The position numbers were made by a program, and so were the translations under genes. Of a stretch of 64,000 nt of DNA, positions 7,061 to 40,038 are shown one piece after another (position 1 is the first letter of the stretch; every line of letters begins with the position of its first letter). The stretch is taken from NCBI GenBank assembly GCA_029258925.1, contig JAPDJV010000004.1, positions 4,645 through 68,644 on the forward strand. The letters are read 5' to 3'. The stretch is from Thermoproteota archaeon (lineage in GTDB: Archaea; Thermoproteota; Thermoprotei_A; EX4484-217-1; JAPDJV01). The notes below the pieces were generated by a model. The model was not told the DNA's origin and ran no database searches. It worked only from the letters and a program-made list of their open reading frames with translations.

Positions 7061-8020
7061 TCATTTTCTACTTTTTATAGTCTTAATTATCTTATCTAGT
7101 GGTGCCTTCCTCTTCCGCAGTAACTCCAAGACTTTATTCAAAGCGGTATCTTTGGGCCTCTTTCTCACTTTTCTAAACCCGGCTGCCCGCTTGAGTTCGG
7201 GGAGCCATCCTCTCCTAGCTGCTCTACACAGATTGCTGGCCTCGCACACGGTGTGAGCATTGAACATGTAGATGTCGCCGTGGTAGTTTAAGATCTCGAC
7301 GACCTTGTGTAGATATGCTACATCGTATCTTCTAAACCCTAGTTTACCGGAGAGTGCGTCACGGTATAGGGTGAGCATTGCCGACTTCTCCCGCTCTAAG
7401 AGAATGCTTATAGCATTTAACACTTTTGGCAACGTGCTTGGTGGAGGCCTATAGCACCCTATGTACGCTCCACTGCTGTACAGGTGCATGAGGTTCTCTG
7501 CTAAGTGGCTAGGGCTTAACATTTCCCCGCCTCCCTCTAAACCTATGGCTCCGACTCCTAGTAGCGTGGTTAATCCGAGCTTTTCCAATGCCTCACTCAG
7601 CGCGGCCAGTGATAACATGTCTGTGATATAGCTTCCTAGCAAGGGTTCGTCGCCGAACATTAGGGAATCACCGCCCAGATCAACCCCTATGTATAGGGAG
7701 ACTCCCAGATCCTCCAACAACTCGAGAAACCCGCTAATTACAGTTCTCCCAAGCTCACGAGTGCAAACCAAGTATGTTTCAAACCCTAGCGAAGCTATGT
7801 GAGGCTCGAAAAATCTTCCACCACTCCACGATTCACCAGTAACCCTCAACACTGCACTGCTGATCTTCTCAGCGTTAAGTACTGCACTAACCCTACAGTT
7901 ACCGAAGGCAATGAACACTGTCTCAACGCCTCTAAGCTTAAGTGGAATAGCTAAAGCTAGTGCTCCCCCAGAGTCTCCCCCTCCACCAAGACCTCCCACA
8001 GCAACTCTACGGCAAGCCAT
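7061..8020 (-). CDS. DUF1152 family protein
   Basis: GLGGGGD, GVDLGGDSL and D..SLAAL motifs. Confidence 0.75.
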   Translation of the reverse strand: MACRRVAVGGLGGGGDSGGALALAIPLKLRGVETVFIAFGNCRVSAVLNAEKISSAVLRVTGESWSGGRFFEPHIASLGFETYLVCTRELGRTVISGFLELLEDLGVSLYIGVDLGGDSLMFGDEPLLGSYITDMLSLAALSEALEKLGLTTLLGVGAIGLEGGGEMLSPSHLAENLMHLYSSGAYIGCYRPPPSTLPKVLNAISILLEREKSAMLTLYRDALSGKLGFRRYDVAYLHKVVEILNYHGDIYMFNAHTVCEASNLCRAARRGWLPELKRAAGFRKVRKRPKDTALNKVLELLRKRKAPLDKIIKTIKSRK

Positions 8021-8159
8021 AATTAAATCCCGAACCCCAGCTACCTCATAAATAGAACAAATATTTTAAATCGTGTGGGTCAGGTTGAAGGAAAACGACG
8101 GTCAACTTGTAATATTAGGAGTGGACTTCTAGATCGCTAGCTTACGGCGAGTCCTCTTA

Positions 8160-8732
8160 TCACCTTGCAGCCTTCTTCACGCCTCCCCTAATTTTCTCGT
8201 TTATGGCTTCCACCATTTCCTCCACAGCTTTCAACGCTTTCTCTACATGTTCTCTCGTACACCAGCCTTCGTAGAAGCATGTATGCATTCCCGAGGCTTG
8301 ATTCCAGGCTTCCAGTATCCAGTCGCCTAGTTCTCCAGCAACTACCCTGCTGTATTCCCATAGCTCTCCATGACTCGGCAACATCTTACCCTCCCTCCAG
8401 TAAGCGTATGCTTTCACTGCTAGCGCCGCTGATCCCCATATTTTCTCGCTAGCCTGCCTCACGCTGGCCTCCTCAAGATCTCCCTTAGCCTCCTCTAAGA
8501 TCTCCTTGGAGGCCTCAATGTGCTCCCTAGCTCTATCCAGCGGATCCAAGTTCTGGGATAGAAGCTCGATGACGTATTCCTCTAAGCTAACCCCCAGTTT
8601 TTCAGCCTCCCTCCTAATCCTCTCGGCGACAACTCGAGGAATAACGATAGTATCAGCCAAATTGAACCCCAAATAACAATAATAATTATCTAAATATATG
8701 TTCTTCCGATAACGGCTTACTTGTGCATCCAT
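8160..8732 (-). CDS. PaREP1 family protein (true start probably downstream, near 8660)
   Basis: QASEKIWGSAALAVKAYA, SHGELW, AWNQASGMHTCFYEG. Confidence 0.85.
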   Translation of the reverse strand: MDAQVSRYRKNIYLDNYYCYLGFNLADTIVIPRVVAERIRREAEKLGVSLEEYVIELLSQNLDPLDRAREHIEASKEILEEAKGDLEEASVRQASEKIWGSAALAVKAYAYWREGKMLPSHGELWEYSRVVAGELGDWILEAWNQASGMHTCFYEGWCTREHVEKALKAVEEMVEAINEKIRGGVKKAAR

Positions 8733-29718: not shown

Positions 29719-30645
29719 TTACGGGTTGAATCCTTTTTCAAGAGCAAGCTTGATTGCATCCTTCAAGTAGATCTTATATGGGCCGAGGCTTCCCCCATAA
29801 TTGCCTGCATCTATCTTCACTATTCCAGGCACCTTGGAGGCTTCTATAGCTGCAACACCCATCGCTAAAGCGACGCTCTTAAGATTTAAACCATTTATTA
29901 CAATCTCGTATACGCAGTTCACGTTCTCCGGGATCTTAGTCTCCTCGACAATATCTCTTATTGTTGGACAATAATAATGGTTTGTTGTTGCACGGAGCTT
30001 GGGGTACTTTATGCTTCCAACCTTAGAGCCCGATCTAACTATGCCTCCCGGGAAAGGTGTTATTACATGCCTACAGTTTTCACGTATTGCTTTTACTGCT
30101 CTCTCAGCTGCTTCAAGCCCCGAATCCAAGCTTTCAGCGAGAATTAGTATATTTCCTCCGGCAACACCCTTAACAACCCCGAACACATCCTCTATTATGA
30201 ACTCTCCCTCCATTACCGGTATTCTCCAAATAGTCCTACCATTAAGAACATCCTTTTTCTCGAATCCATCTCCAAATTTAGCTAAAGCTCTCCCAACATG
30301 TATTTTCCTCTTAACCCTTGGAAGACCATCCCATGCTGCAGTTGTTGGACAAGTGAGTATTGTTTGCCCAACTCTAAGAGTCACCTGGCCTTTGAGCTCG
30401 GGAACACCTAGATGATAGATTTGTATGAGTGCTCCAATCCTCCCATCCGGAGTCTTCTCCCCCGGCACAATTCTTTCAATCCCTGCCTCAGCTGGACTCA
30501 TTATAATAGAAGTTGCAAAACCTGTTGCAACGCTTGCAGCCGTCAGAGCCCACTTTTCATTTCTGGCTGTAACAAGTATTCTGGTTGCATACATGGGGAA
30601 TGCCTCGGCAAAAGTATCCTCAATAATCACGTTATTAATTTTCAA
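29719..30645 (-). CDS. ftr: Formylmethanofuran:H4MPT formyltransferase
   Basis: IEDTFAEAF, ATGFATSII, TPDGR, LTCPTT, PFPGGIVRSGSKVGS, AGNYGG. Confidence 0.97.
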   Translation of the reverse strand: MKINNVIIEDTFAEAFPMYATRILVTARNEKWALTAASVATGFATSIIMSPAEAGIERIVPGEKTPDGRIGALIQIYHLGVPELKGQVTLRVGQTILTCPTTAAWDGLPRVKRKIHVGRALAKFGDGFEKKDVLNGRTIWRIPVMEGEFIIEDVFGVVKGVAGGNILILAESLDSGLEAAERAVKAIRENCRHVITPFPGGIVRSGSKVGSIKYPKLRATTNHYYCPTIRDIVEETKIPENVNCVYEIVINGLNLKSVALAMGVAAIEASKVPGIVKIDAGNYGGSLGPYKIYLKDAIKLALEKGFNP

Positions 30646-30649
30646 AAAT

Positions 30650-30970
30650 CAATCATCTCCGGACTCATATATTTAAATAAACGTTCATACACATTTTAAC
30701 ATAGTTTCGCAACGATATTAAAAGATTTTTCTTAAAGATAGACTAAGATAACACGTGTGAATTTTAGTAGTTATTTAACATAAAAATTTACACGAGCGTT
30801 TTAAAGGCATAAGCATTATACTAGTTATGAGCTTTAATGATGTAATATTAATATTGATAATACTTACATACGTTATACATTTAAGTTGTTAATGAAAAGT
30901 TTGTGCATTTTTAAAAAGTAAAATTATAGTAAAATATAAATTTAGTAAAATCTTATAATAATATATCGAT
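30650..30970. promoter_or_regulatory. AT-rich divergent promoter region between ftr and the DUF2193 gene
   Basis: About 320 nt very AT-rich intergenic region with TATA-like tracts between divergent genes; exact sites not resolved. Confidence 0.45.
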
Positions 30971-30972
30971 GG

Positions 30973-32505
30973 GTGAGTTTTATGGTAAGTCCCGAAGTTT
31001 TAAAGAAAATGGTTAATGATCTTCTAGCTGTTCAAAAAGCTGACATAGCTGTTATAAAAGAGAAGAGAGGCGGGGTATTCAAGGTTGCAGACGCTAAGCC
31101 GTACGTGGACGCAGTTAAGAAGATGGAAGCATTGGAGGGCATGAAGAAGGAGGTCATCGACTTACATGTTAAAAGCGTTGAGCTACACTTCGAAATATTA
31201 AACGACATATGTGTTGACAACACTATTAGGCCCGAGGACGACCCATTTGTAGAGCACTACCAGACACCTGCAATCCTGGAAATACTATACGACCTAGACC
31301 CGGCGCTCAGGGAGAGCGTTGAGAAATTCGTCAACTCCTTCGACGTGAAGGACATTAAGGCAATAATAGGGAAGGAGGCTATTAGGAGGTATACTGGTTT
31401 CTACGGTCCAACATGTGTGGTAGACTTCGCTGTTTCAGCTGGGAGCACTTCAGGACTATTCGGCTTCATACTGGACAGACTAGACATACCGAAGAAGTAT
31501 AAGGAGACTATCCTAGCAGCCAAGAGCTGGGGTATGAACACAAGCTATGGTTTCGGTACAGCATTCACCGAGGCTATGGAGGCAGGCAAGACTGTTGAGG
31601 AGGCACTTGCAACCGAAATAGAGTGGTTGAAGAAGATATGGTTGACACCAGTTGACGCTCAAGTAGAGTTGATGAAGAAGCTCGGACACAAGAGCTTCGA
31701 TCCAGCAGTCTACGAGAAGAGGTATAAGGAGGGCATTAAGCCCTATGTTAAGGCGGCATTAGACGCTGGAGTGAGTGAAGCAAACATTGTGGTTGTTCCA
31801 GCATACTGTGTTGGAGACGTTGGGCACCACATTGCCCAGAGCATGTACAACATGGCTAAAGACGACGTAGTAATGGCAATACTTGAAGCAGTAACATGTA
31901 CCCTCGAGAAGAACATAACTAAAGCATTAGAGGAGGGCAAATTAAAGAACGAATACGCTGTTCTAAGCTTCGCAGGAGGAACAACTGCTGCAGCAACAAC
32001 ATTCATACTAGGCTTAGACGGATTCACAGTGCCAATGGTAGTCGACTTGTTAACTAAGAGATTCTTCAACTACGTGCAGAAGTATCCTGGAAGAGGACAG
32101 GCAGCAGAACTACACAACGTCGACTTCATGGACATGCTTGTTAGAGGAGAGAAAATAATCGCACCGCCACCAATAGGCAAGGGCGGTATACTCAAGGGTG
32201 TCAAACTAGACTTCTCACCAATACTAGAAAACGAGGTAATCATGAACCCGCAGAGGTATACCTATCCTGGATGCGCTATCACAGTGAGGTTCTCAGCTCT
32301 GATGAGGCTAGCTGACTTCCCATGCCTACTGACAAGCGAGCCCGTAACTGCCACTGTGAACACCTATATCGTAGCACTGCACCCAGATGTACCAGTATCA
32401 CCACCACTCATATGCAAGGACTGTGCTGTAGCCAGATTGATGAGTGGAAGAAGATTCCACTGCTACTATAGGGTGGGAGTGGCAAAAGAGAAACCACTCT
32501 ACTAA
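30973..32505 (+). CDS. DUF2193 family protein with C-terminal Cys cluster
   Basis: DAKPYVD, PEDDPFVEHYQTP, GFYGPTCVVDFA, KSWGMNTSYG, YCVGDVGHH, CKDC..C. Confidence 0.85.
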   Translation: MSFMVSPEVLKKMVNDLLAVQKADIAVIKEKRGGVFKVADAKPYVDAVKKMEALEGMKKEVIDLHVKSVELHFEILNDICVDNTIRPEDDPFVEHYQTPAILEILYDLDPALRESVEKFVNSFDVKDIKAIIGKEAIRRYTGFYGPTCVVDFAVSAGSTSGLFGFILDRLDIPKKYKETILAAKSWGMNTSYGFGTAFTEAMEAGKTVEEALATEIEWLKKIWLTPVDAQVELMKKLGHKSFDPAVYEKRYKEGIKPYVKAALDAGVSEANIVVVPAYCVGDVGHHIAQSMYNMAKDDVVMAILEAVTCTLEKNITKALEEGKLKNEYAVLSFAGGTTAAATTFILGLDGFTVPMVVDLLTKRFFNYVQKYPGRGQAAELHNVDFMDMLVRGEKIIAPPPIGKGGILKGVKLDFSPILENEVIMNPQRYTYPGCAITVRFSALMRLADFPCLLTSEPVTATVNTYIVALHPDVPVSPPLICKDCAVARLMSGRRFHCYYRVGVAKEKPLY

Positions 32506-33647: not shown

Positions 33648-34661
33648 ATGAACATTATAGGTGTCTCCGAGAGGTATGGAATTATTGAGGGAGTATACTT
33701 CAAGGTCTTCGATAACTCGATATTTTACTCCAAGGGAATAGTTCATCCGCCATGGGGCGTAGTGGGATATCCCAAGTATGTTCCAGATGAAAGAGGCAGT
33801 AGAGTCTCTCCTAGTGGGGTAAGATATGTTAAGTATGAAGGTTTACATGAGCAATCCAAAGTGTTGAAGGAACGCTATAATTGGACTTTAAGGTTTGATA
33901 AATGTTTTGGAACAGTTGTACCAATAATACCGTTATCCAGCATCAGGGAAGTTTATGATCCAATAATAAAGCTCTCTTCGATGAGAATCGAAGACCCAAG
34001 TAGTCCCGTAGTGGAGTTGGCGGAGGTCTTAGGGGAGGCAGCTGGCTGGAATAATGTTGGAATATCTGGTTCACGTCTTGTCGGATTAGATGTCGAGGGC
34101 TCCGACATAGATCTAGTAGTGTACGGGGTTGAGGAGGGCTCTAAGGCGTATGCGAAGCTTAAGGAGGCTTTCATGGAGATCGAGGATTTCAGGGGTTATA
34201 GGGAAGGAGAATTACTGAAACTTTACATGGCGAGAGCCAGGGAAACACCGTTATCTCTCCAAGAATTTTCTAGACAGCAGTCTAGGAGAGTTCTTGAGGG
34301 CTTCTTCAAGGATGTAGAGTACTTTATTAGGATAATTGACCCCGGGGCCGAACCCCCCTACTCTAGTTATAGGAGTATTAGCTTGGGCACTGTTGTTGTT
34401 AGGGGCGTTGTAGTAGATTCTTCCAAGAACTATTTCACTCCGGTTACTTATAGCGTGGAAGTCGAGGAAGTGCTATGTGGAACTAGTAATGCAGTGGACG
34501 CTACAAGCCTCTACAGTCTTAGAGGAAGGTTCTGCGAGATTTTACTAGATGGCGAAAGATTTGAGGCTGGAGGTAAGCTTGAGAAACTGATATACGAGGA
34601 TGGGAGTGAGGTTTTCAGAATATATCTTGGTTACAAAGGGGACTATGTTAGGATCCTTTAA
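33648..34661 (+). CDS. Predicted nucleotidyltransferase (COG1665-like), paralog 1
   Basis: KGIVHPP..YPKYVP, GISGSRL..SDIDLVVYG, G.FCE..GKLE. Confidence 0.75.
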   Translation: MNIIGVSERYGIIEGVYFKVFDNSIFYSKGIVHPPWGVVGYPKYVPDERGSRVSPSGVRYVKYEGLHEQSKVLKERYNWTLRFDKCFGTVVPIIPLSSIREVYDPIIKLSSMRIEDPSSPVVELAEVLGEAAGWNNVGISGSRLVGLDVEGSDIDLVVYGVEEGSKAYAKLKEAFMEIEDFRGYREGELLKLYMARARETPLSLQEFSRQQSRRVLEGFFKDVEYFIRIIDPGAEPPYSSYRSISLGTVVVRGVVVDSSKNYFTPVTYSVEVEEVLCGTSNAVDATSLYSLRGRFCEILLDGERFEAGGKLEKLIYEDGSEVFRIYLGYKGDYVRIL

Positions 34662-35733
34662 TCCACCTTAAGGGCTTAATGTAGTCTCTTCCACCTGCCT
34701 CGAAAGATCCAACAACTATCCTATGGTACTCTTCTCCCCTCCTGATGTCTCTCACATGCTCAAGTTTGCCGTAAACCAGTATTTTCTCTCCTGGAGACGC
34801 TAGGTCGCAGTATAGTCCCTCGTAGCTTGTGACTTCGACAATATTCCTGCTACTGGGCCCCTCAACAACTTTCACATAGTCTACGAGGTATGTTGCTGGG
34901 AGGAATATGGAGTCGGAGCTATCTACAACCCTTGCAACAGCTTTAACCATCCCTATCCCCCTGAAAACTCTATCTCCATAGTTCTCCGTAACCTCATCCT
35001 CCCTCTTAACAGGGTGAACGGAGAACTGTCTTCCCCTAAATAAGGCCCTATTCCACTTATCCCTACCATATAACATTCTTGCCTCGCTCAATGTGAGGGG
35101 ATGTATTTTAACAATATTCTCAGCCCACTTCTCCAGAATACTGCCACTCGCCATTTCGAATCCTGATTTAGGGTCTGAATACAGTTCTAGTAGAGCATCC
35201 TTTACCTTCAAGCTCTCCCGTCTACCGTAAACTATTAGATCTATGTCGGAGAACTCCACGTTATGTATTTTAAGTAGTATGGAGCCCGAGATCCCCATTG
35301 AAGTAGGGGGCACACCCGACTTCTCAGAGAGTATTGAAACTATTTCGATAACCTCTTCTTCTAAGAGGTCTGCGGGTGACCTCAATATTTCAGCGAGTCT
35401 CTCCTCAGGTCTGTAATGTTTCTTAATCTTATTTTTTGGAACCTCGATTAACTTGAACCCCAGTACTCTATCATACGTAATGTAATCTGGGTACATTTTT
35501 TCCAAGAACTCCATCACCCTTCCAACGCCTTCGGCACTGTAGTATGGAAGTATTCTCCCATACAACGTGCCTCTCTTAGACCACTTAACTCTATGTCCGG
35601 CATCGTATCCTGGAACATACTTCAAGTAAGCTATTACCCTATCCGGTGGATGGATGTTTCCTATGACACAGAACATGAGGCCCTCAAGGGTTTCAAGGAA
35701 GTCTCTGTCAGCGAACTCTCTCAAATCAATCAC
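34648..35733 (-). CDS. Predicted nucleotidyltransferase (COG1665-like), paralog 2
   Basis: GNIHPP..AYLKYVP, GISGSIL..SDIDLIVYG, GLYCD..GKLE. Confidence 0.8.
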   Translation of the reverse strand: MIDLREFADRDFLETLEGLMFCVIGNIHPPDRVIAYLKYVPGYDAGHRVKWSKRGTLYGRILPYYSAEGVGRVMEFLEKMYPDYITYDRVLGFKLIEVPKNKIKKHYRPEERLAEILRSPADLLEEEVIEIVSILSEKSGVPPTSMGISGSILLKIHNVEFSDIDLIVYGRRESLKVKDALLELYSDPKSGFEMASGSILEKWAENIVKIHPLTLSEARMLYGRDKWNRALFRGRQFSVHPVKREDEVTENYGDRVFRGIGMVKAVARVVDSSDSIFLPATYLVDYVKVVEGPSSRNIVEVTSYEGLYCDLASPGEKILVYGKLEHVRDIRRGEEYHRIVVGSFEAGGRDYIKPLRWIKGS

Positions 35734-37180
35734 CTAAAATTCTATCTAAATCACTTAACCCGACTTCGAGCACGCATGTCTTGGCTACTGCTACAGACAA
35801 GTTTTCCTCTTTGGGAACACTAGCTCTTCCACCTATTTCCAGAGTTGAGAGAGATGCTGCTGCAACGGCTCTCCTAGTTGCTTCAACAACTGTCTTACCA
35901 TCTAGAACGCCGTGTATTAAGTGTGCTGCGAAGCAGTCTCCTGCCCCGGTTGGGTCGAGAGGCTTGACTGGCGGTGGCTTAATATGGTGTGCGATATCTT
36001 TTTCGACAACCAGCGCTCCCTCCTCGCCCAGCGTTATTATAATTCTCCTAGCACCCATGTCGAGCAGCTGTGTAGGACTGTCGAAACCCTTGTCTTTGAC
36101 TATCAGCCACTTATCTTTGTTCAATATTATGGTTGGAGAATATTTTATGAGATTCATTGTCTGAGCAAACCTCATTCTAAGAGCCTCTATTAGAGGCCTA
36201 TAGTAGACTTCAACTTCTCCACTAGCAATTCTCATAGCTCTCTCAGCTACCTCGTTGAAGACTTCTCCAACATACATGGCCTTAGTCGAAGAAACGAGTT
36301 TTCTGAGAGTATCCTCCGATATCTCTCCTGGGAGAGGAGATAGTGTGGAATTCTCTGAGATAAGGCATGTAATAGTGTTTCTTCCCCCCTCCAACCCTAT
36401 TACAACCTTAACAGTTGCCCCCCACTTATCTAGAATAACATTGTTCACGTATACGCCTTCCCTAATAAAACTCTCAATACATTTGAGTCCACTGTAATCA
36501 CAGGCCATTTTCCCTATAAAACAAGTTTTCCTACCGAGTCTAGCCAGGTTGACTGCCACATTCGCTCCACTGCCTCCAGGTGCCTCAAGTAATAGTTTTA
36601 CATGAATTGACCCACTTCTCTCCACGAAGTAGTCTACTGCCACCGAGCCCAACACTATTACGTCGAATTCTCCGTTCAACTTCCCCGACTCGGCTATGTA
36701 AGATTCCATTGCAGACATTATTATCTGTCTTATAACCTCCTCTCCAGTAATAGAGAATGTTTCCCTATCAGATATTATCCTCCTAGTTACCTGATCGTAT
36801 AAGCTCAAAATGGCTCTCTTGAGCTCCATAGCGCTTAGCTCCGAGGGGGACTTGAATAACATATTGAACCAGACGCCTAAATCAGTTAAAGTATAGTATT
36901 TAACGTAAACAGTCTTGGTCCCCGACCTTATTTTCTCGATACCTTCACTAAGTATTTCGGATTCAACAAGCCTCTTCAAATAATTTATGATAGTCCTATT
37001 GGAGTGCCTCCGCAGACTGTTAATTATGTCTTTTTGGTAAAGCTTTTTTCCTGGCTCGAACAATCTCAAAACTTCCACTATTATGGGGGAGGAGAATATT
37101 GTTAGCAATATTTTCCTTCTATCGTAAGGGTCACGTGGCAACGGTAGGACTATTGGCCAATACTTTTCCACTTTAAACAC
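35726..37180 (-). CDS. Winged-helix (ArsR-like) domain fused to PfkB-family kinase
   Basis: N-terminal HSNRTIINYLKRLVESEIL..YYTLTDLG; PGGSGANVA and DPTGAGDCF PfkB signatures. Confidence 0.85.
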   Translation of the reverse strand: MFKVEKYWPIVLPLPRDPYDRRKILLTIFSSPIIVEVLRLFEPGKKLYQKDIINSLRRHSNRTIINYLKRLVESEILSEGIEKIRSGTKTVYVKYYTLTDLGVWFNMLFKSPSELSAMELKRAILSLYDQVTRRIISDRETFSITGEEVIRQIIMSAMESYIAESGKLNGEFDVIVLGSVAVDYFVERSGSIHVKLLLEAPGGSGANVAVNLARLGRKTCFIGKMACDYSGLKCIESFIREGVYVNNVILDKWGATVKVVIGLEGGRNTITCLISENSTLSPLPGEISEDTLRKLVSSTKAMYVGEVFNEVAERAMRIASGEVEVYYRPLIEALRMRFAQTMNLIKYSPTIILNKDKWLIVKDKGFDSPTQLLDMGARRIIITLGEEGALVVEKDIAHHIKPPPVKPLDPTGAGDCFAAHLIHGVLDGKTVVEATRRAVAAASLSTLEIGGRASVPKEENLSVAVAKTCVLEVGLSDLDRILGD

Positions 37181-37203: not shown

Positions 37204-37881
37204 TTAAGTAGTCTCATTATTATTGATTTTTCCCAGAATCCTCATTAAAACAAGCCTAGTTCTGGGATTACAGCCTATTCTGAGAGCTTCCTCCAAGTCC
37301 TCGGGGTAATCCAAGTCTACTCTAACAGTATTCTTAGAGTAAACTCTTACAGCTATGCCTCTCTCAATAGCTTTAGCAAGATTTACCCAGAAACTTCCAA
37401 CACCGAAAACAGGCTTAATCACGTTTGGCGGCTTCAAAAGTATTATGTTTGTTCCCCAATCTCTTGCTGGCGATAGAACAATGGCTTTAACATATTTTTC
37501 CGCTAGCGAAACTATTTCCTGGAAGTCTTTCGAGGATGCACAAGGTATGTCTGCTACAGTTATAATAATGCTTTCAGCACTAGGATATGTTTTCTCAATA
37601 TAATCTATTGCCTTCCTAATAGCCTCAACTCTCCCGACGCCCTCGTCGAGCAACACATCACACTTACTCCACTTAGAATAGTACTCTCCGATCCTTGTGG
37701 AAGGAGTCACAATTATTACTCTATCGACGATTTTCGAAAGTTCTTCAACGACGTCCTCGAACATTGCTCTAACTAACTCGGCCCTCTCCCTTAATCCGAC
37801 CCTCCTAGCCAGCCTCTTCTTAGATTTCTCGAAGTCCTTGACAGTAACTATACCTATTAATCCAGTATTCAAAGGTCTCAC
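37204..37881 (-). CDS. cofC: 2-phospho-L-lactate/PEP guanylyltransferase (F420 biosynthesis)
   Basis: VKDFEKSKKRL, AMFEDV, ADIP, GTN, FG.GSF, DLDYPEDL. Confidence 0.88.
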   Translation of the reverse strand: MRPLNTGLIGIVTVKDFEKSKKRLARRVGLRERAELVRAMFEDVVEELSKIVDRVIIVTPSTRIGEYYSKWSKCDVLLDEGVGRVEAIRKAIDYIEKTYPSAESIIITVADIPCASSKDFQEIVSLAEKYVKAIVLSPARDWGTNIILLKPPNVIKPVFGVGSFWVNLAKAIERGIAVRVYSKNTVRVDLDYPEDLEEALRIGCNPRTRLVLMRILGKINNNETT

Positions 37882-37985
37882 TCCTATGAGGAAATCAGTT
37901 AGTTGGCGCTTAAGTATTATTGGGTCATTTTGACTCTTATAGTATATTAAAAGTTAGCTTATTGTTACAGGTGCGCGATTTGTAT

Positions 37986-39233
37986 ATGATCCAGGGCTGG
38001 GAGAAGAAGGTTATTAGAGGGGATATTCAGAAGTTTAATGTGCCGTCGGGATGGCCGTTTGAACCAGGAGACTACAAGGTTGGAAACCCTTATCATCCAG
38101 CTGCTGTCGTGGTACCGTTGGGTTCGCCCAGACTGGAGTCTAAGGCTCTTGAATACGGTTGTGCCATAGTTGGAAGATGTAGGACAGCTAACATAGGTAT
38201 AGAGAAGCTTGTGTGCAATGTTGTGTCAAACCCTAATATAAGGTGGCTCGTGGTAGTAGGCCCGGAATCCGAGGGGCACCTCAGCGGGCAGGCAATAATC
38301 TCTCTTATTGAGAGAGGTGTTCACCCGGATACGAAGAAGATAATTGGAGCGAAGGGTCCTTCCGCTAGAATACCTAACATACCGATTGAAATTGTCGAGA
38401 GGTTTAGGAGGCAGGTTAGAGTAGTGGACATGCTGGGTGTTCTAGACGAAGATCTCTTGAAGGCTGTTTTAAGGGGGGTTGTTCAGGAGCCCTGGAATAA
38501 GGTTGAAGTAAAGGTTAAGGGTAAAAAGTATGTCCTGTACGATCCGGGAGCATACTTAGATGAGCCTCCAATAATAGTCTCACTGGAGAAACTTTTCTCA
38601 GTTAAGGGTGTGAGAGTAGAGTCGACGTCATATACTCAGACAACTATAATTGCCAGAAGCATAGGGGAAGCATACCCGTACATAGTTTGGCTATTGGATC
38701 ACGGCTCATTTGTTGAATACGTTGACGAAAGGGGCTCCAGGGTAAGAGAACTTCTCAACATACTAATACATGTGAGGAAGCCTCTGGCCGAACCAATGGT
38801 TCCCAGAGAATACAATATCTTGTCAAGAAGCGAGCTGGAAGAATACGCTAAAACGTATCTGAATCCAAGTAGGAGGGGCTTCGAGTACACTTATGGTGAG
38901 AGAATAGTGGCGTATCCTACTAGAGTAAACCAGCTAGAATACGTTGTCAAAAAGCTCTCAAACAACTACAATACTAGGAGAGCAGTTATTGTGACCTGGT
39001 ATCCTCCTAAAGACACCGTGGTAGATGAAGTACCGTGTTTAACCACAATAATGTTCAATTGCAGGAATGGAGTACTACACGAAACAGCTGTTTTAAGGAG
39101 CAACGACATGATCAGAGCTTGGCCTGCAAACGCGTACGCCCTAGCGAAGCTCCTGAAATACGTGTCCCTAAAAATAGGTGTTGAACCGGGAACCCTCACC
39201 ACTCTAAGTATAAGTGGCCACAAGTATCTCTAA
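37986..39233 (+). CDS. Fusion protein: MtrA-like corrinoid-binding domain plus archaeal thymidylate synthase
   Basis: N-half GWPFEPGDYKVGNP, CRTANIGIEK..NVVSNPNIR, EGHLSGQ, ERFRRQV, YDPGA. C-half FEYTYGER, TRRAV..W, VPCL, RSND..AWPAN, SGHKY. Probable start at 37986 after AGGTG; the track ORF begins at 37920. Confidence 0.9.
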   Translation: MIQGWEKKVIRGDIQKFNVPSGWPFEPGDYKVGNPYHPAAVVVPLGSPRLESKALEYGCAIVGRCRTANIGIEKLVCNVVSNPNIRWLVVVGPESEGHLSGQAIISLIERGVHPDTKKIIGAKGPSARIPNIPIEIVERFRRQVRVVDMLGVLDEDLLKAVLRGVVQEPWNKVEVKVKGKKYVLYDPGAYLDEPPIIVSLEKLFSVKGVRVESTSYTQTTIIARSIGEAYPYIVWLLDHGSFVEYVDERGSRVRELLNILIHVRKPLAEPMVPREYNILSRSELEEYAKTYLNPSRRGFEYTYGERIVAYPTRVNQLEYVVKKLSNNYNTRRAVIVTWYPPKDTVVDEVPCLTTIMFNCRNGVLHETAVLRSNDMIRAWPANAYALAKLLKYVSLKIGVEPGTLTTLSISGHKYL

Positions 39234-39528
39234 TGCAGACCTGTGATTCGATGGGAACCACAGCTTATTTTAATAAATTCAAGTACGCTGAAACACCATG
39301 ATCTAGGAGCACGAATGTGCCCATTGCGAAACATTTTCATCAAGTAATACTCTAACTAAGGAGAACTTGTTGAGAGAGCAATCAACCCATATCTGCCATA
39401 ACCGGGACTTCTTGTTGAAACTTCTAGAAGTCCAGATCCCTTAGCTTTAACATGTTTCAACTATGTGCAGCTTTTGCAGAAACACAGCTAGATTAAGAAC
39501 AATGACTTGAAGACTTCAATTATCTCCG

Positions 39529-40038
39529 TTATAATACTTTTGCCTTTCTAAGAGCCTCTGCAATTATCGATGCTAGGATGGCGTTCGACACTATGCTTAG
39601 TGTGACAGCTGGAAAAGATATGGCAATCCAGAACTCGACGAAGCCTGTTAACCCTTTACCAGTGTATACGGCTAGAACCAGAGCTATCGGAGTTGAAGTC
39701 GTGAAGTATCTGAGGCATTGTCCAACTATTATTGCTATTCCAGGCCTCATCTTCTTCAACAGCAAACATGTGATAACCCCCATGATCCCATCACCCAGTC
39801 CAGCGGGCATCTCTATTATTGCTTGCCCTGTCCAAATACTTGCTCCAACACCTTTAATGACTCCCACCAAGAATACTAGGGGTGGAGGTAGCAGTATAGA
39901 TGACACACTTATGGCTGTGCTCCCCAGATTAGGGTTTCCCAGAACCATTGGAACTCTTATGAAAGTCAGAGTTATTGCTAGAGCAGAGAAAAGTCCCGCT
40001 GCCGAAAGCATTCTAGTTAAATTCTTCAATTCTAACAC
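39529..40038 (-). CDS. Probable ECF transporter S component
   Basis: About 170 aa, 5-6 hydrophobic segments, AAGLFSALAITLT..NLG pattern. Confidence 0.6.
   Translation of the reverse strand: MLELKNLTRMLSAAGLFSALAITLTFIRVPMVLGNPNLGSTAISVSSILLPPPLVFLVGVIKGVGASIWTGQAIIEMPAGLGDGIMGVITCLLLKKMRPGIAIIVGQCLRYFTTSTPIALVLAVYTGKGLTGFVEFWIAISFPAVTLSIVSNAILASIIAEALRKAKVL

Follow-up and report, generated by a model that had tools for sequence, protein, structure and literature searches.

In MtrA, subunit A of tetrahydromethanopterin S-methyltransferase, His84 ligates the cobalt of the bound cobamide and Glu54 is hydrogen-bonded to both His84 and the meander segment, with Asn55 binding a propionamide, Tyr18 and Val61 sandwiching the base, and Thr53, Gly57, and Asn64 holding the nucleotide tail, according to PMC4915002. 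As far as that account goes, the soluble homologues of MtrA that occur outside methanogens have no known role, and PMC9012536 and PMC9931769, in the parts that touch on the subject, present thymidylate synthesis in archaea that use tetrahydromethanopterin (H4MPT) as hardly studied. The gene described here, at positions 37986..39233 on the + strand of a 64,000-nucleotide stretch of contig JAPDJV010000004.1 from a Thermoproteota archaeon (the whole stretch being referred to as the window), encodes an MtrA-type domain fused to a thymidylate synthase (ThyA) and so joins these two questions in one expressible, testable polypeptide. An earlier reading made from the letters of the window (the sequence-only reading) could not confirm that the architecture was unreported. 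Searches of one library of papers found none on an MtrA-like/ThyA fusion and none on DUF4346, described below, but the architecture is already in databases, where it has partly been named automatically. The protein is best described as a ThyA whose corrinoid-type domain has yet to be characterised. The reading preferred here, held at about even probability from comparisons of sequence, is that the protein carries out ordinary ThyA chemistry with methylene-H4MPT and bears, as an accessory, an MtrA-type domain in which cobamide is probably still bound.

To our knowledge, the protozoal bifunctional dihydrofolate reductase-thymidylate synthase is the only well-known ThyA fusion. In that enzyme (2H2Q, an entry that was also matched in the searches of solved structures), ThyA is likewise joined to a cofactor-handling domain, but its partner, dihydrofolate reductase, serves to recycle the pterin, whereas the partner here is a corrinoid-type domain with no evidence of a reductase function. 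MetH provides an analogue for any participation of the cobamide, in that a His-on, base-off cobamide held on a Rossmann-type domain shuttles the methyl group of a methyl-pterin to a nucleophile; PMC4915002 draws the comparison between MetH and MtrA. MetH, however, employs an unrelated B12-binding domain, a pterin-binding barrel of its own and a His-Asp-Ser relay, whereas in the fused protein the relay carboxylate is missing and no pterin-binding methyltransferase was found in the host genome. Pyrimidine C5 chemistry that relies on a cofactor other than pterin alone is also seen in ThyX and in the enzyme of entries 9IQC and 9IQU, but the fold of ThyX is unrelated and no ThyX was found in the host genome, and the 9IQC enzyme acts on deoxycytidylate (dCMP) with FAD, to go by the title of its PDB entry; no paper on this enzyme was found.

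Architecture of the fused protein

The gene lies in a single uninterrupted open reading frame (ORF) on the + strand, 37920..39233, which comprises 437 amino acids when counted from TTG 37920, the start assigned mechanically. ATG 37986 is probably the true start, giving 415 amino acids plus stop, because the database copy of the protein (P0001) has the same 415 amino acids and because a putative AT-rich TATA-like box (37937..37953, + strand), 33-49 nucleotides upstream of this ATG, falls within the longer TTG-started frame. Residues are numbered here on the 415-residue form. The order of an MtrA-like part followed by ThyA, proposed in the sequence-only reading, was borne out by the domain matches on the 437-residue ORF: PF04208 (MtrA) at residues 40-189 (E 4.7e-43), PF00303 (Thymidylat_synt) at residues 321-436 (E 4.9e-13, 49.3 bits versus a cut-off of 24.3), and the NCBIfam model TIGR03283 ('thy_syn_methano') at residues 243-436, with 193.6 bits exceeding its cut-off of 174.55. 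The model for true MtrA, TIGR01111, has a cut-off of 249.15, which the protein, at 146.3 bits, did not reach. PF04208 and PF00303 were the only matches of the Pfam scan, in which the B12-binding domain of the MetH/MtaC type (PF02310), with its DxHxxG-type site, was not matched by the fused protein.

The MtrA-type Rossmann-like domain comprises residues 11-201 (38016..38588, + strand), as delimited by PF04208 and structural superposition. In an AlphaFold2 model built on a 30-sequence alignment (mean pLDDT 91.1, pTM 0.80), this region superposes on 5l8x_A with Z 27.0 and a root mean square deviation of 1.5 Å over 171 residues, and on cobalamin-bound 5laa_B with Z 26.2 and a deviation of 1.0 Å over 159 residues (VIA-align). 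It resembles MtrA (5L8X, 5LAA, and 8Q3V) in fold, in sequence (~40-44% identity), in the His ligand, and in Tyr18, Thr53, Asn55, Gly57, and Asn64 of MtrA. His98 (38277..38279, + strand), in the EGHLSGQ motif that the sequence-only reading had picked out as carrying the cobamide ligand, aligns with His84 of the solved MtrA 8q3v_A. Unlike MtrA, which has a membrane helix and mtr partners, the fused protein has neither and is fused to ThyA; the membrane anchor is absent, as had been proposed, since the chain continues straight into the ThyA half. There are two further differences: Glu54 of MtrA is replaced by Ala68 (38187..38189, + strand; from the alignment, codon checked), a change that the sequence-only reading had not mentioned, and the meander reads GPSARIPN in place of GAIPY/F-x-EN. 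The end of the N-terminal domain and the linker that follows (38481..38630, + strand; QEPxN ... YxLYDPGA) are predicted to form a β-hairpin and a helix, and columns Q167, E168, L184, D186, P187, and G188 of this region are nearly invariant in alignment A1.

The short methanogen-type ThyA domain occupies residues 216-415 (38631..39230, + strand) and was assigned by TIGR03283 and by structural match. Stand-alone members of TIGR03283 are 40-48% identical to it, with the same catalytic residues and the same end immediately after the HxY motif; they are 190-240 amino acids long, whereas the fused protein has ~215 additional residues at its N terminus. The ThyA motifs listed in the sequence-only reading are all present on the + strand, with their codons verified: the catalytic Cys351 of VPCL (39036..39038) and Asn382 of WPAN (39129..39131), both invariant in alignment A1; Arg371-Ser372-Asn373-Asp374 (RSND, 39096..39107); and His412-Lys-Tyr414 (HxY, here GHKY; 39219..39227), one residue past which the chain ends, the last two motifs also being supported by alignment A1. 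Asn382 stands at what we take to be the position selecting uracil over cytosine. The ThyA half also contains Y303, of the ThyA Tyr motif, and Arg331-Arg332 of TRRAV (38976..38981, + strand; codons checked), the phosphate-binding Arg pair of ThyA, presumably equivalent to E. coli R126/R127, as alignments with B. subtilis ThyA also indicate. Only residues 1-210 of E. coli ThyA find a counterpart, the classical C-terminal ~54 residues being absent. Structurally, residues 216-415 are closest to 9iqu (Z 22.9), followed by MilA 5jnh_B (Z 21.7) and by ThyAs (Z 19.5-20.4; VIA-align). A complex prediction of the N-terminal half against the ThyA half returned a score of 0.00, which is no answer and bears neither way on the arrangement of the two.

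That the solved proteins closest to the ThyA-fold half include MilA in sequence (E 1.1e-08) and a dCMP hydroxylase in fold raises the question of whether its product is thymidylate at all or another C5-modified pyrimidine nucleotide, such as a hydroxymethyl derivative. This is very improbable, as TIGR03283 is matched above its cut-off and the base-selecting position holds Asn382, aligned with Asp in the CMP hydroxymethylase MilA; moreover, the seven genomes considered in the next section would be left without any recognisable thymidylate synthase.

Junction, distribution, and role as thymidylate synthase

The sequence-only reading had pointed to the junction as the place where an assembly chimera might show. 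Two other studies each supply an independent contig across the junction: one of 68.6 kb, from run X2, spans 37700-39500 with 3 differences, and one of 699 bases, from run X3, spans 38269-38967, across the domain boundary. Together with the fused homologues present in many independent assemblies, these contigs rule out a chimera, and the chance that two genes were brought together by an error of assembly or binning is negligible. A single 230-base contig (38293-38521) came from the RNA-library run X9, which is too little for a claim of transcription.

The fusion is not confined to one genome, which the sequence-only reading had named as a refuting outcome, but is widespread. An exhaustive search of 1.84 billion representatives gave 3331 relatives at E<=1e-3 and 48 at E<=1e-30, and both Pfam domains were present in 30 of 117 database hits. 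Among 261 rows examined (260 proteins and the window protein, which recurs as P0001), 93 contain both domains, 131 the N-terminal domain only, and 37 ThyA only. Fusions were found in archaea, bacteria, and viral contigs, and full-length matches occur in records of metagenome-assembled genomes (MAGs) titled Desulfurococcaceae, Thermoprotei (two copies), Thermoproteales, Thermoproteaceae, and Candidatus Methanoperedens. A Patescibacteria MAG encodes a 553-amino acid fusion (L030, 5869-7530) with Pro at the Glu54 position, the His kept and a very divergent ThyA half. The gene directly downstream of it (7567-8184) is, by eye, presumably a thymidylate kinase. In the ESM Atlas, several clusters of 50-146 members show these architectures in archaea and bacteria, one of them automatically named 'Tetrahydromethanopterin S-methyltransferase, subunit A/Thymidylate syn...'. 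Some sources name the fused proteins 'tetrahydromethanopterin S-methyltransferase subunit A', a label that, in organisms that are not methanogens, could be mistaken for a sign of methanogenesis or methyl transfer.

Two architectures were distinguished. In 49 fused proteins, the window gene included, the chain stops directly after ThyA (type 1), whereas 44 are extended at the C terminus (type 2). The extension is PF14251 ('PterinBD-DUF4346') in 44/44, and the MtrA model is still matched in 41/44 type-2 proteins. Type 2, as represented by P0113 from a cyanobacterial MAG and by L106, shares with the window protein the order of the first two domains and the catalytic set of ThyA; it differs in the added PF14251, in keeping the His in just 1/44, and in the loss of most tail-pocket residues. 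The window protein has no DUF4346, and no match to PF14251 was obtained in its genome. Viral contigs L105 (171-1154) and L106 (1994-3397) encode type-2-like MtrA-like/ThyA/DUF4346 proteins, that of L106 having 467 amino acids and no cobalt-ligating His; a scan of viral sequences with alignment A1 gave type-2-like genes only.

The catalytic set of the ThyA half is the same irrespective of its partner. The Cys is present in 39/39 type-1, 44/44 type-2, and 28/28 stand-alone proteins, and the equivalents of E. coli C146, R166, S167, D169, N177, Y94, R126/127, H207, and Y209 are conserved alike in these three sets. The E. coli numbering is the one we take to apply and is consistent with PDB titles. 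On a tree of 119 ThyA domains, made by a quick search, the architectures are clustered, requiring 12 changes versus 56 for shuffled labels, but they are also interleaved, with the stand-alone ThyAs P0128 and P0136 nesting beside type-1 proteins (support 91). No MtrA-like gene was adjacent to ThyA in the loci of P0128. Conversely, a ThyA-type sequence was present in 7 of 80 MtrA-like loci, always within a fused gene (L003-L009), and 73 loci without a fused gene, mostly of unfused MtrA-like proteins, contained no ThyA-type gene within ~6 kb. No conserved synteny was seen across lineages; neighbours elsewhere include a TmcA-like acetyltransferase, an S9 peptidase, a xanthine/uracil permease, a radical SAM protein, and a flavoprotein.

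The host genome (1.75 Mb, 98.4% complete) gave one ThyA match, which is the fused gene, and no ThyX. As the only ThyA in a genome of this completeness that has no ThyX, the fused gene is, by these searches, the organism's only recognisable thymidylate synthase. Within the class, 201 genomes were sampled, of which 169 have ThyX and 28 a ThyA-type gene, with both together in three. The ThyA-type gene is fused in 7 of the 28 (G000, G065, G001, G005, G009, G012, and G018); ThyX is found in 0/7 of these genomes, one of which is a single-contig genome. Where ThyA stands alone in the class sample (21 genomes), no match of the N-terminal domain to the full-length query was obtained at E<=1e-5.

Conservation of the cobamide site

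The MtrA contact positions were compared in 49 type-1 proteins (the window protein being counted twice, as WIN and P0001), 44 type-2 proteins, and 131 unfused MtrA-like proteins. The cobalt ligand His84 is kept in 46/49, 1/44, and 128/131 of these, respectively. In the same order, Tyr18 is kept in 47/49, 7/44, and 99/131, Asn55 in 44/49, 10/44, and 123/131, Thr53 in 49/49, 17/44 (with Ser in 25), and 129/131, and Asn64 in 46/49, 39/44, and 131/131, while Gly57 is kept by all (49/49, 44/44, and 131/131). Glu54, by comparison, is kept in 6/49 type-1 (Ala in 40) and 1/44 type-2 proteins as against 105/131 unfused ones, and among the 26 unfused proteins without it are several that belong to the fused family but are truncated, paralogous, or highly divergent. 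Six of the seven tabulated positions are conserved in type 1, and among type-1 proteins, which share only 30-50% identity, the His and the tail pocket are strongly conserved. This pattern of residues leans towards retained cobamide binding; type 1 looks able to bind cobamide, and type 2 does not.

The state of Glu54 requires just 6 changes on a 223-row FastTree of N-terminal domains, the Glu54 column itself being among the 200 columns used. Since so few changes suffice, the loss of Glu54 is, as judged from this tree, an old mark of MtrA domains linked to ThyA.

These figures also bear on whether the N-terminal domain of type 1 might bind no cobamide and persist as a relic that serves folding, oligomerisation, or capping of the pterin site, as it evidently does in type 2. 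Type 2 keeps a domain recognisable to the MtrA model though His84, Tyr18, and Asn55 are mostly lost, the loss of Glu54, whose state requires just 6 changes on the tree, could represent a first step of decay, and some replacement structure is plausible given that the C-terminal segment of classical ThyA is missing from the short form. Without a ligand, however, His84, Tyr18, Asn55, and Asn64 of type 1 should have drifted as they did in type 2, and a pure relic scaffold is hard to reconcile with their conservation; we therefore consider it unlikely.

Several further forms of the domain were observed. A long form of 487-530 amino acids (alignment A1 rows P0023, P0025, and P0027-P0030; loci L009 and L100-L103) carries, in the N-terminal domain, an insert containing a CxxC pair, as well as inserts of ~30-45 residues after this domain and within the ThyA half, and one Thermoprotei MAG encodes both a short and a long copy. 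Proteins of 320-332 amino acids from Thermoproteota MAGs (L011, 1124-2122; L013, 974-1936) consist of a ThyA-linked type of N-terminal domain, with Ala at Glu54 and the His kept, and the linker, and end in a C-terminal region of ~100 amino acids without ThyA catalytic motifs. Alignment A3 (P0093 and 12 relatives) comprises proteins of ~392 amino acids with an invariant Cys-rich N terminus, an intact MtrA domain in which Glu54 and His84 are kept, and then DUF4346; it gave no relative on viral contigs.

One-carbon context and the role of the N-terminal domain

The gene stands beside a cluster of H4MPT and F420 genes, in agreement with the sequence-only reading. Upstream in the window are Fwd-like subunits, Mtd, Ftr, a DUF2193 protein, a distant CofE-like gene, a PfkB kinase, and CofC, a neighbourhood that is not conserved in other genomes. 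With Fwd-like, Mtd, and Ftr genes nearby, methylene-H4MPT is a plausible pool of one-carbon (C1) units. The earlier statement that the window has no other mtr genes extends to the entire genome, in which the fused gene is the sole MtrA match and MtrH gave 0 matches. The genome searches likewise returned no Mer, no pterin-binding methyltransferase of the dihydropteroate-synthase type (PF00809), no DUF4346, and no CobS. Found in the genome were a MetF-type methylene-pterin reductase (L104, G000:C5:22673-26281), five matches to the B12-binding domain PF02310, none of them in the fused gene, and an operon-like group (L095, G000:C4:48869-52207) of a RACo-type corrinoid activator (392 amino acids), a corrinoid protein (221 amino acids), and an MttB-family methyltransferase (505 amino acids). 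Proteins with a B12-binding domain are encoded in 7/7 fusion-bearing genomes of the class, and CobS in 5/7.

Against this background a cobamide-dependent synthesis of thymidylate (dTMP) can be weighed, in which the cobamide of the N-terminal domain would join the C1 transfer and the pterin would leave unoxidised, constituting a third route to dTMP beside ThyA and ThyX. By analogy with the attack of the thiolate in MetH and Mtr, methyl-H4MPT might methylate Co(I), with C5 of the Cys-activated deoxyuridylate (dUMP) then attacking methyl-Co(III); or reduced cobamide might supply the electrons that the pterin gives in classical ThyA. The replacement of Glu54 would then represent a lower cobalt ligand retuned for new chemistry, rather than the onset of decay. 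Such a step is chemically plausible, as a Cys-activated C5 acts as the nucleophile in S-adenosylmethionine-dependent C5 methylation. The conserved cobalt ligand and tail pocket of type 1, a fold equal to that of holo-MtrA, the MetF-type reductase and RACo-type activator of the host, and the use of cobamides by all fusion-bearing genomes (7/7) are in keeping with such a reaction, and the pTM of 0.80 suggests that the predicted domains may have a fixed arrangement. ThyA-fold enzymes can also use a non-pterin cofactor, to judge from how the PDB titles describe 9iqc and 9iqu (Z 22.4-22.9), namely as a dCMP hydroxylase that depends on flavin.

Several results nevertheless lean away from an obligatory catalytic cobamide. 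No MtrH, PF00809 protein, or Mer was found in the genome that could load it, Glu54 is lost in 43/49 type-1 proteins versus being kept in most unfused ones, the Asp169 equivalent and the other ThyA residues are unchanged, stand-alone relatives and a His-less type 2 exist, and the 73 loci without a fused gene show no ThyA-type gene nearby. We therefore regard a cobamide-dependent reaction as unlikely, though it deserves to be kept in view. Were the cobamide to participate, it would be a new B12-dependent reaction in the synthesis of DNA precursors; if it does not, the family illustrates how a cofactor domain can be retained and later lose the residues that bind its ligand, from type 1 to type 2.

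Ordinary ThyA chemistry with an accessory domain is favoured by a ThyA half that has not changed, by relatives that stand alone, by a type 2 that lacks the His, by a genome in which no enzyme for loading the cobamide was found, and by the loss of Glu54. In this mechanism Cys351 would add to C6 of dUMP, C5 would take the methylene group from methylene-pterin, and a hydride of the same pterin would complete the methyl group. The pterin would presumably be methylene-H4MPT, supplied through the Fwd, Ftr, and Mtd enzymes encoded nearby. The N-terminal domain probably still holds a cobamide, as the nucleotide-tail pocket and the cobalt-ligating His are kept, and would hold it base-off and His-on, without the Glu that couples the His to the redox cycling of cobalt in MtrA. 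With the pocket and the His kept and Glu54 lost, the domain would act as an accessory module, whether structural, stabilising, or regulatory, and not as an obligatory methyl carrier. The two functions put forward in the sequence-only reading, a cobamide-assisted route to dTMP and a B12/methyl-status sensor on ThyA, both stay candidates.

A number of points weigh against this preferred interpretation. The term 'accessory' is a weak statement that does not specify the exact role of the domain. The conservation of the His and tail pocket in type 1 exceeds a purely structural need and fits a working cofactor, albeit with the window protein counted twice. The stand-alone ThyAs may have an N-domain partner encoded elsewhere, and a protein that consists of the N-terminal domain only and has the signature of the family does exist (P0132), although a metagenome scan for a split form, made with this protein, gave no relative. 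The ThyA tree came from a quick search, and in both trees support for the deep branches is weak. The C-terminal residues of classical ThyA help to align the folate, as the title of PDB entry 1tda has it, and with ~54 of them absent here, the pterin must be bound otherwise than in textbook ThyA, perhaps with a contribution from the N-terminal domain. Finally, the biochemistry of H4MPT-type and archaeal ThyA is essentially unstudied, as PMC9012536 and PMC9931769 describe the field.

Other features of the window were noted in passing. Between Ftr and the CofE-like gene, the DUF2193 protein (30973-32505, + strand) has 510 amino acids (E 1.2e-217) and is preceded by an AT-rich gap, with a GC content of 0.29 at 30500-30999. 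Two ORFs on opposite strands (33648-34661, +, 337 amino acids, and 34648-35733, -, 361 amino acids) lie among the F420/H4MPT genes and belong to one shared blastp family, with no Pfam or NCBIfam match to either. The PfkB-family kinase (35726-37180, - strand) has an N-terminal extension of ~170 amino acids outside the Pfam coverage. An Rfam scan of the window returned no RNA family. A gene for a 169-amino acid membrane protein (39529-40038, - strand) converges on the fused gene from its 3' side; the protein has a weak match, below cut-off, to the S component of an ECF riboflavin transporter (E 0.0015).

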